This document shows, in pieces, positions 2 to 9,738 of a stretch of 64,000 bases of DNA (within the stretch, counting starts at the first letter, position 1; the number at the start of each line of letters is the position of its first letter). Under the pieces are notes generated by a model that worked only from the letters and a program-made list of their open reading frames with translations, searched no databases and had not been told where the DNA came from. Location: positions 1,110 through 65,109 of the forward strand of contig JAUSIP010000016.1 of the NCBI GenBank assembly GCA_030648005.1, given 5' to 3'. The stretch is from a bacterium (GTDB lineage: Bacteria > Patescibacteriota > Minisyncoccia > Phycocordibacterales > UBA12445). A program made the position numbers and the translations under genes.

Positions 2-3000
2 TCAAGTTCTGATTTCAGTATTTGTTGTGTAGCAACCACCTCTAGTAGTAATCCTTCTGTTGCTACTCAAAATACCGACATCAATGGTCCTGGGACAGGC
101 ACTGTCGGTATAAAAACCATTACAGCTGACACGCTAGCCAAAACTGTTACGTTAACTCTCGATACTGCGACAAGATCAGAAAATAGCGACACTCACGACT
201 TCTTACGATTTACGATCGCTGGACTCAAGAATCCTTCTATTCCAAAAGGGATAGATTCATCAGGGTACGTTCTTGATATCAAATCTAAGAATGCTTCAGG
301 AGTGTTACTTGAATCATTCAATGCTAATCCTGTTTATATTGGTGGTGGTACAGCAGGTGGAGGATCTGTGACAACAATCAGGGGTGTTGTTTCTGGGAAC
401 GGTAGTAATTTGAAAGATGTTCCTGTTCACCTCATGTCGCCTTCAACTGGCCCACAAGATGCTACGACCGATGCTAACGGCTTGTATCAGTTCACTAATA
501 TTCCTGTCGGCTCGCAGTTCTTGTCAAATAACTTTGGTGGCGGTAATGAATATATGGTGTTCATTGAGCCATTCATAACCGGTGTTAGTGATGAGAACGG
601 CGCCACAACAACCAACTTCTTCGGTAATACTATGCCGTCACCAGTTATCGCGACCTCTACCAGTCTTATAGGGAAAAACTTCTCTCTTACTCCTGCAAAC
701 ACAGCTTCAATCGCAGCTAATTTCACTGTAAGGTTAACAGCTGCAGCCAATACTTTCACCGCCGCAGAGACCCTCGATGTATTTGCTGGCGGCCCCGGCC
801 AGTTTGTCTCAAGAACTATTACTCCTGGAGCCTCTGCTTTAAGCAACTCAACTCTTACTACCGTGCCTATTCCTAAGGTGAACGGTTCATGGGGTGTTGG
901 TATTAGTCCGCCTATGCCTAAGGGCGGAGGGTTTAGTGGTCCGCCACCATCACCAAATTGGTCTATGCCTAAGCCGATAGAGGTTAAGGTTTCCGGATGT
1001 CCTTCAGCCTGCGTAACATCCGTTAGTGGCTTCGCTACGACCTCCAATATCTTCACGATTTCTACCGCCGACAAAACTATTTCTGGCGTGTTGAAAGATG
1101 GCAGTGGTAATGCTATCGCTAGTGCTATGGTGTTCGCCTTCTCTCCATCGACAGACGCCGGAGGAGGTACAGGCAACAGCACTCAAAGTTCTACAGTGGG
1201 CGCCTTCTCTATTAAGGTGGTTGCCGGAACATATGTGGTTGGTGCGTACTCTCCGGGTATTGGTGAATCGAAGAAGGTTACTGTTGTTGTTGATAGTTCA
1301 GGCAATGTTTTTGTCGACGGCAATGCGACTGCTTCTACTGGCTCGTCAGGAGCTAATCCTTTCACACTTAAAATGGTTAAGCCTGACTACTCTATTACAG
1401 GTCAGGTAACGGATGGTTCGAGCGCAGTCGGTAACGCCCCAGTCTTTGCTTACCGTACGGATGCCCCAGGTCATGCCGATGCCATGAGTGACTCTTCAAC
1501 AGGAAACTATACACTTTACGTCAGTAATGGTACGTGGAAAGTAAGCTCGTTCATTCCTGGGTTTGGTCCAATGGCTGAGCAGACGGTGACTGTTTCAGGT
1601 AGTAGTCAGTCAAATATAAATTTCGCGCCATCTTCCAGTCAGACCTTCAGTATCTTGTCCGGTAATATCTATGAAGATACAAACAGGAGTGATACCTTTA
1701 CGGCCGGAGAGGGTTTGTCCGGTGCGGTAATTCGAGTTTCTAATGGCACAAATGTAAATGAAGGTGTGTCGAGTACTGACGGCGCTTATACTGTTCGAGT
1801 GCCATCCGGTACAGGTTACAAGATCCAAGATATTTTCAGCCCGACTTATGGTAGGATTGCGCCGATTGGAGATAGTGGCGCGGCAATTGGTACGATTAAT
1901 TTAACTGCTTCAACTACTAAGAATATCCGTATTCCTATCCGAGGAACTGTCAGTATCATAATTAAGGATTCAAGTGGCAATCCGCTTACAGTACCTAAGG
2001 CGTTTATTGATCTCTTTGACAATACGACTGGTTTGGGTAATCACGTAGAGATTGATAACGGAACCACTACATCCATACTCATGGCATCAAGCACCTCAGC
2101 CTATACTGTGAAAGCTTATATACAGGGTATTCCTCCAGCTAATATTTCTGTTGCGTCTGATGATGCCGGAACAACAGTCACATCTGGTAGGATAACGATC
2201 AACCGCGCTACTGAATATATTAAGATTGTGGTTAACACCGCCTCGGCTGGTATGAGCACTATCTCCGGTACCGTATATAAAGATTCCGCTACATCCGGCA
2301 ACGAACTCGAAGGCGCATGGATTCAATTCGTCGATCAGACCAACGGTGTTCAGTTTGGTACCCAGTCTACATCTAGCGGAAGATACAGCATAAAGGCTTT
2401 AGATGGTACTTATCAGATACTTGTATCAAAGCCTCAATATGTTGCTACTCCAACAACTTTAGTTGTTTCAGGCGCAACAACACAGAACATGACCATGACG
2501 CAATCCTCCCTGACTATCTCCGGTACTGTGACATCTGGTGGTGTGGCCGCCGCTAGCTCATTCGTTCGTGGTGAGAAAGTGGGAGGAGGTCAAGCCATAA
2601 CACAAACAGATACAAATGGTACTTATACCTTGAACGTTACTCCCGGTACTTGGAGAGTCTTCGCAGCTGCTGATGGTTATGCAGAGGCCGGTTATGCTTC
2701 TAATCCGCTGACTGTTTCTAGTTCGCAATCCAGTATCAATGTCGCTCTTTCAACCGCTGCATCCGTTCAGTCAAAGTTGGCTACTTCCAACACCTTTAGT
2801 GATACTTCAGCAGGAACTTTCAGTGACACTACGGTTAACCTTAAGGTAAGTGTTGATGCAAATGCTTTTGGTTCTGCTGGGGCGAGTTCCTACTTCACCG
2901 CCAAGGAGACTACTAACTATCCAAATACAACTAGTGTTAATATTGTCGCTAATAAAGCTAAGGATATCAGTGCTTTCTCGGGAGGTAGCCAGGTTACAAA

Positions 3001-4144
3001 TCTTGCATCCGGCAAAACAGCAGATGTTGAATTGACTTATACTGTGGCAGAGTTAGCAACTTCAAATATAGACACCACAACAGAGGTCGGCAAATTAACA
3101 GTCGTATCTTATAGTTCCGATAAGGGAGATTGGGAAACATTAAGTACGGTCGCAACCTACAAAGATTCGGCTGGAGATGTCGTGGCTTCCCCGAATGCTA
3201 ATCTATCTAACGTATCATCAGTCAGCTTCATTGCCTCAGGTACTCACTTCTCAGCATACGCCCTATCTTCTTCTGAGGGTGTATCACCGCCCGATGCGCC
3301 GACAGGAGTGACTGCTACTCCGGCAACAAACGTAGCTAGGGTTACGTTAACGTGGACTGCCTCTCCTGATGCTGAAGGATATTATGTTTACAGAGACACA
3401 TCTGCTGGTGGCACCTTCCCGTTAATTGGAAATCCTGGAAACACAACAAGCTATACCGATAATGCTGTATCAATCTCAACTACCTACCTCTATAAGGTGT
3501 CGGCATTTAAATCTAGTGGCGCTTCGGAATCATCACCTTCATCTGCTGTGAGCGCCACAACTCTTTCTGGCGGAGGTGGCGGAGGCGGAGGAGGAGCTGC
3601 CGCGTCACCTTCACCTGCTCCAGCAGCATCTACACCAGTAGTTGCCACTCCGGCACCTGTTGCGAAGCCAGCTGTTAAAGAGACCATAGGTCTTGCAATC
3701 CCTGTAAGTACTAGTGGTACAAATAGGATAGTTATAGGACATAAATTCTTGAAGGTGCTTAAGATTGGCAATAAGGGCAATGAGGTCAAGGCCCTTCAGG
3801 ATATTCTTGAGGCACAGGGACATCTTAAGATGCCTAAGGGTGTAGCTAAGGGCACCTTCGGCTCATTAACCAAAGAGGCTATTAAGAAGTTCCAGAAAGC
3901 CAATAATATCGCCAAAGAGGGTCAGCCTGGCTTCGGTGATCTTGGACCTAAGACTAGAGCGAAGTTGAATGAGATGGCTGTGGTAGAAACACCAAAAACG
4001 GAGGCAGAACCGGCCAAAGCACCAGAAGCATCTAAGTCAGCATCTGTTATGACTTCGGAGGCTAAAACAGCATTGATCAGCACTCTCTTACAGCAAATTC
4101 AGGCTCTGCAAGAAGTGCTTAAGGGTCTGAAGGCCGGACAATAG
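2..4144 (+). CDS. Giant secreted/cell-surface protein, 5'-truncated by the window edge. It has tandem beta-sandwich (carboxypeptidase-regulatory-like) repeats, an FN3 domain, a Gly/Ala/Pro linker and a C-terminal peptidoglycan-binding domain.
   Basis: Frame 2 is open from nt 2, with no stop before the GTG at 302 used by the ORF track. It contains repeated ~90-aa modules (e.g. SGTVT..DTNGTYTLNVTPGTWRV). It has the FN3-like PDAPTGVTATPATNVARVTLTWTASPDAEGYYVYRD, a GGGGGGGGAAASPSPAPAA linker, and the PG_binding_1-like NEVKALQDILEAQGHL...GTFGSLTKEAIKKFQKAN. Confidence 0.8.
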   Translation, partial: SSSDFSICCVATTSSSNPSVATQNTDINGPGTGTVGIKTITADTLAKTVTLTLDTATRSENSDTHDFLRFTIAGLKNPSIPKGIDSSGYVLDIKSKNASGVLLESFNANPVYIGGGTAGGGSVTTIRGVVSGNGSNLKDVPVHLMSPSTGPQDATTDANGLYQFTNIPVGSQFLSNNFGGGNEYMVFIEPFITGVSDENGATTTNFFGNTMPSPVIATSTSLIGKNFSLTPANTASIAANFTVRLTAAANTFTAAETLDVFAGGPGQFVSRTITPGASALSNSTLTTVPIPKVNGSWGVGISPPMPKGGGFSGPPPSPNWSMPKPIEVKVSGCPSACVTSVSGFATTSNIFTISTADKTISGVLKDGSGNAIASAMVFAFSPSTDAGGGTGNSTQSSTVGAFSIKVVAGTYVVGAYSPGIGESKKVTVVVDSSGNVFVDGNATASTGSSGANPFTLKMVKPDYSITGQVTDGSSAVGNAPVFAYRTDAPGHADAMSDSSTGNYTLYVSNGTWKVSSFIPGFGPMAEQTVTVSGSSQSNINFAPSSSQTFSILSGNIYEDTNRSDTFTAGEGLSGAVIRVSNGTNVNEGVSSTDGAYTVRVPSGTGYKIQDIFSPTYGRIAPIGDSGAAIGTINLTASTTKNIRIPIRGTVSIIIKDSSGNPLTVPKAFIDLFDNTTGLGNHVEIDNGTTTSILMASSTSAYTVKAYIQGIPPANISVASDDAGTTVTSGRITINRATEYIKIVVNTASAGMSTISGTVYKDSATSGNELEGAWIQFVDQTNGVQFGTQSTSSGRYSIKALDGTYQILVSKPQYVATPTTLVVSGATTQNMTMTQSSLTISGTVTSGGVAAASSFVRGEKVGGGQAITQTDTNGTYTLNVTPGTWRVFAAADGYAEAGYASNPLTVSSSQSSINVALSTAASVQSKLATSNTFSDTSAGTFSDTTVNLKVSVDANAFGSAGASSYFTAKETTNYPNTTSVNIVANKAKDISAFSGGSQVTNLASGKTADVELTYTVAELATSNIDTTTEVGKLTVVSYSSDKGDWETLSTVATYKDSAGDVVASPNANLSNVSSVSFIASGTHFSAYALSSSEGVSPPDAPTGVTATPATNVARVTLTWTASPDAEGYYVYRDTSAGGTFPLIGNPGNTTSYTDNAVSISTTYLYKVSAFKSSGASESSPSSAVSATTLSGGGGGGGGGAAASPSPAPAASTPVVATPAPVAKPAVKETIGLAIPVSTSGTNRIVIGHKFLKVLKIGNKGNEVKALQDILEAQGHLKMPKGVAKGTFGSLTKEAIKKFQKANNIAKEGQPGFGDLGPKTRAKLNEMAVVETPKTEAEPAKAPEASKSASVMTSEAKTALISTLLQQIQALQEVLKGLKAGQ

Positions 4145-8099: not shown

Positions 8100-8139
8100 A
8101 AGCTGTTTTATTCTGACGGCCGTCAGAATAAAACAGCTT
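8100..8139. terminator. 40-nt perfect palindrome (bidirectional terminator-like hairpin)
   Basis: AAGCTGTTTTATTCTGACGG|CCGTCAGAATAAAACAGCTT, followed by TCGGATTTTT. Confidence 0.7.
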
Positions 8140-8155
8140 TCGGATTTTTGACAAT

Positions 8156-8183
8156 AAAAAAAGGTCAGGGGGATTCCCTGACC
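8156..8183 (-). terminator. Rho-independent terminator of the GC-rich minus-strand ORF
   Basis: The minus strand reads GGTCAGGG-AATCC-CCCTGACC followed by 7 T. Confidence 0.75.
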
Positions 8184-8202
8184 TTAGCACTCGAACCGAG
8201 TA

Positions 8203-8756
8203 CTACTTCTTCTGCTTGGACTTCTGTGCCGCCTTCTTCTTGGCTGCCTCCTGTGAGGACGACTGGATGGAGAGTCTCGAGGCCTTCGAATCGGCGTCGC
8301 GTTCCCGCTTGGCATCGGCTTCGCGCAGAGCGCGTGCTCGGCGTTCGGCCCGATTCCTTTCCTGCCGACCCGTCGTCACCTCCGGCTGGGCTTCGGTCTC
8401 GGACTTCAGCCCGGTGTAGGTCACGTGTCCCTTGAGAGACCGCAGGTCCCGCCAGAGGATGTTGAGACCACCACCGAAGCTGACCTTCGCGAGGTGACCC
8501 TGGATCTCCAGGACTCGGCCCTTGCCGTAGCTCGGGCGACCGACCGCGATGTCCTCCACCATGGGGTGGAAGACCGTGTCCGGCACCACCTCCAGGTTGG
8601 AGATGTGACACTTGACCACGCTCTTGCCGATACTGACCTCCGCGATGACCTTCTCGATGGACTCTCTAAGATCGACGGAATGGTGTTCACACGGCCCAGT
8701 ATGTTGCCGGGCATGCAGATGACGAGGTTGCCGGCACAGATGATGAGATTCTTCAT
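8203..8756 (-). pseudogene. GC-rich ORF of unknown function, apparently frameshifted near 8670-8700
   Basis: GGAGG lies 7 nt before ATG 8756. The frame from the ATG (MKNLIICAGNLVICMPGNILGRVNTIP) turns into Arg/Ser-rich nonsense. The -1 frame continues protein-like (VDLRESIEKVIAEV...GRVLEIQGHLAKVSFGGGLNILWRDL...) to the stop at 8203. Confidence 0.55.
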
Positions 8757-8845
8757 GGGATGTCCTCCGTTGTACGATTCACGCCTGTTTGAGCAGTGTT
8801 AGCTCGCTCAGGTTTACTATTTCAATAGTTCAGAGTCTACTTTAT

Positions 8846-8874
8846 ATCATACACCAATGGGTCTATTTTGTCAA
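8846..8874 (-). promoter_or_regulatory. Consensus sigma70-type promoter driving the GC-rich ORF
   Basis: The minus strand reads TTGACA (8874-8869), 17 nt, then TATGAT (8851-8846). Confidence 0.6.
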
Positions 8875-8876
8875 GT

Positions 8877-8905
8877 TTGGCCTTTTTAGTGGACTATTAT
8901 ATAAT
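8877..8905 (+). promoter_or_regulatory. Promoter of the 8914 gene (near-leaderless)
   Basis: TTGGCC-17 nt-TATAAT, with the ATG 8 nt after the -10 element. Confidence 0.5.
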
Positions 8906-8913
8906 AATAAGCA

Positions 8914-9738
8914 ATGGAGGAGCTTAATAAAACCCAGATCGTCTTACTAACATTGTTCATAACATTTGTTACGTCTGTAACAACAGGTATTGTCACTGTG
9001 ACCCTTCTTCAGCAGGCTCCGCAAGGTGTTACTCAGACTATTAATAGGGTCGTTGAGCATACCATTGAGAAGATTACTCCTGTCACAACCAGAACGGAGA
9101 CAAGAGTTGTTGGACAGGAAGATGAGATCATAAAAACCGCATCATTAATTAAGCCTGCTATTGTGAGAATTACCTCTTCAGTTTCGACTGCTGTGGCATC
9201 TACTTCTGACGAGCAGCTTGCGGGGATTTTAGTAGCAACAAATTTAAGCGACAACGAGGTGGGTACCGGCTTCCTGGTCTCAAGCGATGGATTAGTCGCT
9301 ACGGCCTATTCAGTGATCCCTGACCACAATATAAGCTATGGAGTTTTTGTTGGAGACAAGAAGTATCAGGCCAATGTTATCATACACAATAAGAATGAAG
9401 GATTAGCTATACTTAAGATTGAACATGATAAAGCTACTAAGTTTGTCGCTCCGCAGTTTGCATCTAAACCTGTAACGTTGGGTCAGACCATCATAGTATT
9501 AGGTCGCGATCTTGATAGGTACACTGTGTCTGTCGGCCTGGTTGCTTCACTCAAGGAGGCAACTTTGTCGTCTTTGCCTATATTTAAAACCACTGTGAGG
9601 TCTGACAATACCAACATCGGCGGACCGCTACTTTCAAGTACAGGACAGGTTGTGGGTCTTAATCTTGAGAATGGTAATGCTTTGCCTATTGAATTAATCA
9701 AATCTGGTATGGCATCTACAACAAGGGCGACGAATTAA
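8914..9738 (+). CDS. Membrane-anchored trypsin-like (S1C/HtrA-like) protease homologue with a substituted catalytic triad
   Basis: It has an N-terminal TM helix. GTGFLVSSDGLVATAYSVI, GLAILKI and TNIGGPLLSSTGQVVGLN align to the S1C motifs GSGF..TN.HV, DIAVLKI and GNSGGPL. Confidence 0.65.
   Translation: MEELNKTQIVLLTLFITFVTSVTTGIVTVTLLQQAPQGVTQTINRVVEHTIEKITPVTTRTETRVVGQEDEIIKTASLIKPAIVRITSSVSTAVASTSDEQLAGILVATNLSDNEVGTGFLVSSDGLVATAYSVIPDHNISYGVFVGDKKYQANVIIHNKNEGLAILKIEHDKATKFVAPQFASKPVTLGQTIIVLGRDLDRYTVSVGLVASLKEATLSSLPIFKTTVRSDNTNIGGPLLSSTGQVVGLNLENGNALPIELIKSGMASTTRATN

Follow-up and report, generated by a model that had tools for sequence, protein, structure and literature searches.

A GC-rich, probably resident gene in a dedicated slot of a clade of Patescibacteria

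According to the Lawrence–Ochman model, acquired genes of atypical base composition ameliorate over time. Programmed -1 frameshift genes, of which dnaX and the transposases of the IS3 family are examples, continue their coding sequence in a second reading frame, and SgrS/SgrT, RNAIII/hld and SR1/SR1P are dual-function or mRNA-embedded regulatory RNAs. All three resemble in part a GC-rich block on the minus strand of a 64,000-nucleotide stretch of DNA (hereafter the window; positions 1,110 to 65,109 of contig JAUSIP010000016.1, assembly GCA_030648005.1) from a bacterium of the Patescibacteriota. The block lies in a slot between a cysteine desulfurase gene and divergently oriented protease and ClpB genes. 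It shares with Lawrence–Ochman genes that it is a single gene with a GC content at third codon positions (GC3) about 8 standard deviations off the genome but, unlike them, its deviation persists in positional orthologues past the near-saturation of synonymous sites with no amelioration, and neither a donor nor a mobility gene nor an insertion scar accompanies it. As in the programmed frameshift genes, the coding sequence in the window continues in the -1 frame; unlike in those genes, there is no slippery heptamer in the window and the shift is not conserved in the orthologues. As in the dual-function RNAs, the unit in the slot may carry an RNA alone, an open reading frame (ORF) together with an RNA, or an ORF alone. 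It differs from them in that its ORFs are far longer (110–190 amino acids) and in that the window copy is almost devoid of a non-coding part. On balance, the block is probably best explained as a resident gene in a dedicated slot, with a composition that is maintained and a window copy that is frameshifted.

The block (8203–8756, minus strand) contains 61% GC with a peak of 67–70%, compared with 44.2% for the whole 64-kb window. The mean GC content in 300-nucleotide windows is 0.442 (standard deviation 0.042), the block peaks at 0.67 with sharp steps at ~8200 and ~8800, and the highest value outside the block is 0.57. The block ranks first in the 64 kb as an outlier for GC at a single codon phase and its GC3 of 0.82 lies ~8 standard deviations above the 42 host ORFs (0.463 ± 0.044, maximum 0.57), a pattern that is far beyond chance. 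Between 8754 and ~8690 the GC-rich phase (0.81–0.87) is the third position of the frame that starts at ATG 8756, and between ~8675 and 8203 the GC-rich phase (0.80–1.00) is the third position of the -1 frame, in which the three codon positions contain 0.63, 0.43 and 0.82 GC (8203–8676). The codon phase thus moves by -1 at 8676–8662. Because the GC excess is periodic and switches phase, the block is a coding sequence in which the frame is genuinely broken. It is not a non-coding RNA: screening of the whole window with Rfam 15 (gathering threshold) and ARAGORN revealed four tRNAs only and no transfer-messenger RNA (tmRNA), and Rfam applied to 8100–8920 with an E-value threshold as well returned nothing above noise.

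The frame break can be repaired by the removal of a single AG (8667–8666), which produces a seamless ORF of 183 amino acids (..IPSILESIEKV..). The AGAGAG tract at 8667–8662 is the sole simple-sequence repeat in the first 200 nucleotides of the coding sequence and is located at the phase switch. The repaired protein aligns end to end from residue 1 with an intact homologue, P0002 (193 amino acids, one uninterrupted ORF; BLASTP E 3e-32), which phmmer recovers with E 2.8e-26 over residues 8–157. The 27 residues encoded in the frame of ATG 8756 are part of the alignment (KNLIICAGNLVICMPGNILGRV in the window, QNIIPVTGNMVFVIPNKKLGYV in P0002). Because the repaired protein aligns end to end with the intact P0002, the window copy is frameshifted, and judging from the sequence the simplest account of the break is most likely a +2 slip that turned (AG)2 into (AG)3 at 8667–8662. 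As sequenced, the window copy is a very recent pseudogene or else an assembly error. The unit consists of the following parts, all on the minus strand:

8846–8874, minus strand: promoter of the sigma-70 type, TTGACA-17-TATGAT, 11 of 12 consensus positions
8757–8845, minus strand: 5' leader of ~85 nucleotides between the promoter and ATG 8756, of which the block 8816–8757 is conserved in L081
8768–8764, minus strand: Shine–Dalgarno sequence GGAGG, 7 nucleotides ahead of ATG 8756
8676–8756, minus strand: N-terminal 27 codons in the frame of ATG 8756 (MKNLIICAGNLVICMPGNILGRVNTIP), GC3 0.81, aligning with P0002 residues 14–40
8662–8667, minus strand: AGAGAG tract, the likeliest site of the frame break (+2 nucleotides, (AG)2 to (AG)3)
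8203–8676, minus strand: C-terminal 157 codons and stop in the -1 frame, encoding a predicted beta-rich core and, behind it, a long helix rich in Lys, Arg, Ala and Glu
8205–8203, minus strand: stop codon TAG of the -1 frame
8154–8185, minus strand: intrinsic terminator found by consensus scan, with a 10-bp stem, a 5-nucleotide loop and T7

The unit therefore owns a promoter, a Shine–Dalgarno sequence and a terminator, the stem of which (8185–8161) reads AAGGTCAGGG-AATCC-CCCTGACCTT followed by T7. The NCBI annotation covers just the part that starts at GTG 8619 (Q7S19_03020, 138 amino acids, 'MAG: hypothetical protein [bacterium]', encoded on a contig of 108.8 kb), which means that Q7S19_03020 is the remnant of a 183-amino-acid gene. 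A first-pass annotation made from the sequence alone had located the promoter, GGAGG, stop codon and terminator at the same places; its hand counts of the GC content are exact (70.0% for 8281–8340, 66.7% for 8521–8580, 33.3% for 8821–8880 and 48.3% for 9001–9060), the frame break that it placed near 8670–8700 is real and its translations of both frames are correct.

The gene for P0002 is found on L081, a Logan contig of 1.1 kb that is arranged like the window: this GC-rich gene (GC3 0.88) converges with a cysteine desulfurase gene (GC3 0.44), the product of which is 85% identical to that of the window. When the cysteine desulfurase was used as a handle to gather relatives, a further ten contigs (L082–L091) were obtained. 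The gene order DUF4446, cysteine desulfurase, trypsin-like protease and ClpB is found in all of them. Inspection of the same locus in related genomes, as the first-pass annotation had proposed, shows that six contigs besides the window (L081–L083 and L085–L087) have a GC-rich minus-strand ORF in this slot, with the cysteine desulfurase gene on one side and the divergent protease and ClpB genes on the other. The ORFs in the five contigs other than L081 are:

L082, minus strand: slot ORF of 161 amino acids, GC3 0.88
L083, minus strand: slot ORF of 156 amino acids, GC3 0.91
L085, minus strand: slot ORF of 153 amino acids, GC3 0.88
L086, minus strand: slot ORF of 113 amino acids, GC3 0.70
L087, minus strand: slot ORF of 114 amino acids, GC3 0.76

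The loci that bear the slot contain 41–45% GC and the flanking genes have a GC3 of 0.31–0.45. The slot is absent from the outermost contigs (L088, L090 and L091), where the cysteine desulfurase gene abuts the protease gene, and the same arrangement is found in the distant Paceibacteria L017, L028 and L053. The nearest named relatives of the clade are genomes of the Paceibacteria type and of Candidatus Vogelbacteria. In the contigs that hold the respective end of the slot, the signals of the unit are homologous as well. The slot promoters of L082, L083, L085 and L086 (TTGACA-17-TATACT) can be aligned with that of the window, including its first transcribed bases (..GTAGA..TTGAAATAG..), and the window terminator is homologous to the slot terminators of L081–L086 (..CCAGGGAAT..CCCCTGGCCTTTTTTTATTG). 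Counting that of the window, the layout is present in seven independent assemblies (the others, from five further samples, being JGI 3300064746 with two contigs, SRR22388166, SRR31089947, SRR12816580 and GCA_964639675.1). The neighbours of the slot in the window are housekeeping genes, and the borders of the block contain no integrase or transposase genes, terminal repeats or target duplications, only repeats at chance level and two terminator hairpins. A clade of Patescibacteria would accordingly hold a dedicated slot, equipped with a sigma-70 promoter close to the consensus, a leader, an intrinsic terminator and a Shine–Dalgarno sequence that is strong, and the block would be a resident, lineage-restricted protein gene and not a fresh import.

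The comparison of the window with L081 was used to assess if the GC-richness is maintained. The cysteine desulfurase genes are saturated at synonymous sites (proportion of synonymous differences pS 0.78) with a nonsynonymous divergence (dN) of 0.10 and 85% amino acid identity; dN of the slot gene is 0.52. Across the clade, the third base is the same at only 0.36–0.44 of the conserved four-fold codons of housekeeping genes. In the slot gene, 34 out of 43 conserved four-fold sites carry G or C in both the window and L081, and the base itself is the same in only 59% of these 34 sites. Based on this comparison, the sites of the slot gene have changed base repeatedly and yet remained G or C, with C-to-G and G-to-C swaps being common and replacement by A or T being rare. 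Amelioration would be expected of a gene that had been acquired in a single event and had since been exposed to the mutation regime of its host. Because the flanking synonymous sites are near saturation, the G/C-ending codons seem to be actively maintained. Translational selection was rejected as the cause of the GC-rich codons because the genes for ribosomal protein S13 (rpsM, GC3 0.49), IF-2 (infB) and ClpB (both 0.46–0.47) are ordinary; in particular, the value for S13 shows that codons ending in G or C are not optimal for translation in general. The slot mRNA is much more stably folded through its GC content (-0.40 vs -0.25 kcal/mol per nucleotide), and a specific mRNA fold was rejected as the cause, as shuffling of synonymous codons gave z-scores of -0.2 to -2.8 compared with +0.4 to -1.7 for controls. 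A search of the literature on persistent GC-rich genes and on codon usage in Patescibacteria found nothing relevant.

A search of 5.8 billion protein clusters with the repaired protein returned only the protein itself (Q7S19_03020), an exhaustive phmmer search of 1.84 billion representatives added P0002 and nothing else, and a profile built from the two retrieved the same two proteins only, leaving a single intact homologue among ~15 billion proteins. The first-pass annotation had not recognised the family, and no curated library (Pfam, NCBIfam, PHROGs, PADLOC) contains a threshold match for the repaired protein or P0002; relaxed thresholds gave sub-threshold matches only (E >= 0.008). No match was found by blastn and tblastn in phages (INPHARED) and plasmids (PLSDB), and protein-pattern scans and a 22-mer of the conserved leader identified no relatives in IMG/VR and the JGI metagenomes. 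None of the collections searched contains a homologue from outside the Patescibacteria clade, and therefore none contains a donor. Four types of slot protein can be distinguished within the clade: type A (window and L081, 48% identical), type B (L082, L083 and L085, 69–73% identical among themselves), type C (L086) and type D (L087). The identity between types is 21–33%. An hhalign comparison of type A with the five other slot proteins gave a probability of 91.2% (E 1e-6) over 89 collinear columns from residue 1, and type A compared with type B alone gave 60.6% (E 8e-5). On the strength of these alignments, the slot proteins (~110–190 amino acids) constitute one very divergent and fast-evolving family without a known domain, which is previously undescribed and restricted to the clade. 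They share an N-terminal beta module (..IP..G..V.V......LG.V., or G-x-x-V..LG-x-V) that is followed by a short strand ending in ..V..VP, then a second beta module (G.WV.H....LG.G.V..I...G..V.F., or LG-x-G-x-V..V-x-F), and they usually end in a charged helical tail. A test for an internal duplication relating the two modules was not significant (E 0.07).

The slot of several relatives encodes an RNA. Contig L084 is the nearest neighbour of the window based on housekeeping genes, and its slot has a promoter and a terminator with no ORF and no codon periodicity in between; the transcript of ~520 nucleotides (L084:3765-4285, minus strand) folds with a z-score of -5.5 relative to shuffled sequences. 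The slot of L089 contains a hairpin-rich RNA of ~150 nucleotides (L089:4794-4960, minus strand; z-score -4.8) and no ORF. In L082:1772-2318, L083:6664-7096 and L085:4737-5409 (minus strand) the 430–670 nucleotides from the stop codon of the slot ORF to the terminator are conserved, rich in GC and non-periodic. Helices are inserted in this segment as modules, compensatory changes affect 12 pairs and (U)AGUGC motifs recur. The 'MDGxCAKG..' ORFs that gene callers predict there are spurious. The position of a motif GRAATGTCGCYAAG followed by AGTGC repeats varies: L082 and L083 have it 3' of the ORF, L081 has it on the 5' side, and in L084 it lies midway along the RNA. Rfam contains no match to the slots of L081–L085 and L089. 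The RNAs of L084 and L089 were not called as tmRNA either and may represent an undescribed non-coding RNA of the Patescibacteria. The slot thus contains an RNA alone (L084, L089), an ORF and an RNA (L081–L083, L085 and L086) or an ORF alone (window, L087), and it resembles an RNA gene under a strong promoter to which a mobile ORF module can be added; all of its versions are GC-rich. Because the slot unit of relatives contains, or consists only of, a GC-rich structured RNA, the GC-richness would reflect selection on the transcript as a whole.

The leader is specific to the type of the ORF. The leader block 8816–8750 is 91% identical between the window and L081 over 68 nucleotides (blastn), compared with 59% for the coding sequences, and includes a run of 33 nucleotides (GCGAGCTAACACTGCTCAAACAGGCGTGAATCG, 8775–8807, minus strand) that is 100% identical. 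Types B to D have a different leader, with a hairpin carrying a YAAAC loop ahead of AGGAGG. No further copy of the 33-nucleotide run is present in the window, IMG/VR or the JGI metagenomes. A structured, riboswitch-like element was rejected since the leader has no stable fold (z-scores of -0.3 to -0.9) and no Rfam match, and a small upstream ORF was rejected since its frame lacks a start codon in L081. The leader may reasonably be taken as a putative type-specific operator that is possibly bound by the cognate protein; as such it would be a regulatory site of the slot protein and might be autoregulatory.

In the PDB and Pfam the slot protein matched only small SH3-like beta-barrel modules that bind nucleic acids, in all cases weakly. 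The matches consist of the PDB profiles of the eS4 KOW domain (E 0.23) and the tandem KOW domains of Spt5 (E 0.35–0.7), and of the sub-threshold families Tudor_1_RapA (E 0.12), SH3_15 (E 0.04) and further SH3 families (E 0.04–0.08). The likeness to the KOW domains of NusG/Spt5, uL24 and eS4 and the Tudor-like domains of RapA and CarD consists of two predicted beta modules with the pattern Gly-x-x-Val...Gly-x-Val that precede a basic helix. Unlike the established members, the slot protein reaches neither a significant match nor a Pfam gathering score, which makes the resemblance a lead and not a membership. AlphaFold2 runs with the two-sequence alignment and with the single sequence gave a predicted local distance difference test score (pLDDT) of 48 and 51, with only the C-terminal helix being confident and the beta region remaining below 50. 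The modules and the helix are compatible with a small protein of tandem SH3-like (KOW- or Tudor-like) barrels and a basic helix that may bind nucleic acids, and the product would be highly expressed.

The first-pass annotation had offered four explanations: a recent acquisition from a high-GC donor that decayed to a pseudogene, an indel in a real gene, a programmed -1 frameshift and an assembly chimera. The real coding sequence with a frame break was confirmed, and the intact P0002 that aligns with the repaired protein supports a pseudogene or an indel in a real gene; recent import, programmed frameshifting and a chimera did not hold up. An assembler chimera, in which high-GC DNA of another organism was joined into the contig, could produce the sharp GC transitions, but both flanks belong to one conserved syntenic block of host genes (DUF4446-cysteine desulfurase-[slot]-protease-ClpB) and the AT-rich promoter and the terminator belong to the unit. 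Because seven independent assemblies share the architecture, a chimera is excluded for practical purposes. Programmed -1 ribosomal frameshifting that joins both frames would agree with the downstream frame being -1 relative to the ATG frame. However, no X XXY YYZ heptamer is present in any register between 8756 and 8560, no homopolymer run is found near the junction, and each of the six orthologues, P0002 included, consists of one uninterrupted ORF, which rules out this mechanism save for a negligible chance. A sequencing or assembly error in an organism with an intact 183-amino-acid gene would replace the pseudogene part of the explanation only. The window sequence is a metagenome-assembled genome and the lesion is single, with no other stops or indels, a GC3 that is still 0.82 and a seamless ORF upon removal of two nucleotides, and all six orthologues are intact. 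On the other hand, 2-nucleotide indels outside homopolymers are uncommon in short-read assemblies and (AG)3 is a plausible site of a genuine replication slip, and an error is rated as a real but lesser possibility.

With respect to the composition, a recent horizontal acquisition that has since decayed to a pseudogene would account for the extremely atypical GC3 and the frameshift, but positional orthologues of the same composition are found in the six other contigs next to flanks with near-saturated synonymous sites, the promoter and terminator are common to those relatives, and no donor homologue was found. Because of the seven assemblies with a shared architecture and the divergence data, a recent acquisition is disfavoured to the point of being very improbable. 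The chief competing account of the composition is that cassettes have been replaced repeatedly: the slot would be a recombination hot spot that receives cassettes of leader and ORF, with or without the RNA module, from an unsampled GC-rich pool (for instance a mobile element or virus of these bacteria or of their hosts), such that the GC content is re-imported each time. Four protein types at 21–33% identity and two ORF-less versions coexist among genomes with cysteine desulfurases that are 63–82% identical, the nearest neighbour of the window lacks the ORF, the leader co-varies with the ORF type (the window leader cannot be aligned to those of types B to D), the RNA motif changes sides of the ORF between L081 and L082 or L083, and the discontinuous protein identities favour such replacement. 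Conversely, no member of the pool was found in 15 billion proteins, IMG/VR, INPHARED, PLSDB and the JGI metagenomes, the borders lack the integrase genes, terminal repeats and target duplications of mobile elements, and the type B slot gene tracks the housekeeping genes (69–73% vs 75–85% identity), leaving repeated replacement as an unlikely, though not a trivial, explanation. A gene-specific force that keeps the unit GC-rich, with a transcript that doubles as a stable or structured RNA or an ORF that arose within a structured RNA gene, is likewise only tentatively considered. Several observations weigh against a resident gene with a maintained composition. The identity of the slot proteins drops to 22% at a cysteine desulfurase identity of 75%, yet reaches 70% elsewhere at the same distance, a discontinuity that cassette replacement and bursts of divergence explain equally well. 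The gene could also be of foreign descent, acquired when the clade arose. Furthermore, the codon shuffling revealed no specific fold, such that only a general preference for GC or folding stability can be argued, and the fold assignment is based on non-significant matches and poor AlphaFold2 models. A resident gene in a dedicated slot is nevertheless the explanation that was retained as the probable one.

The surroundings of the slot display additional features. A perfect 40-nucleotide palindrome (AAGCTGTTTTATTCTGACGG/CCGTCAGAATAAAACAGCTT) at 8100–8139, just past the stop codon of the cysteine desulfurase gene, resembles a bidirectional terminator and cannot be aligned with the relatives at that position. 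On the other side, a second promoter-like site (TTGGCC-17-TATAAT, 8877–8905, plus strand) is located back to back with the slot promoter and points at the trypsin-like protease gene (ATG 8914), the leader of which would be a few nucleotides long. A second variable slot exists between the DUF4446 and cysteine desulfurase genes (L083:3928-4896, L085:2481-3427, L086:2707-2937 and L091:877-1107) and holds small ORFs without a Pfam match (~165, 72 and 60 amino acids) in some relatives; in the window the two genes are adjacent (6743/6811). The second-highest GC peak of the window (local 60% GC, 3511–3690) is located within a 1280-amino-acid ORF at 302–4144 (plus strand) with CarboxypepD_reg and PG_binding_1 domains, in which the GC content at second codon positions (0.54) exceeds that at first and third positions.

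Taken together, the slot adds a new small-protein family and an associated structured RNA, both absent from the libraries, beside the protease and ClpB stress genes of this clade. If the ORF arose as a module 5' or 3' of an RNA core, then L084, L089 and the window would represent states of one element. An atypical GC content is usually read as a sign of fresh transfer, and the slot gene is a counter-example to any dating by amelioration. What it suggests is a force specific to this gene that acts on composition or on RNA, in tiny genomes where codon selection is expected to be weak.

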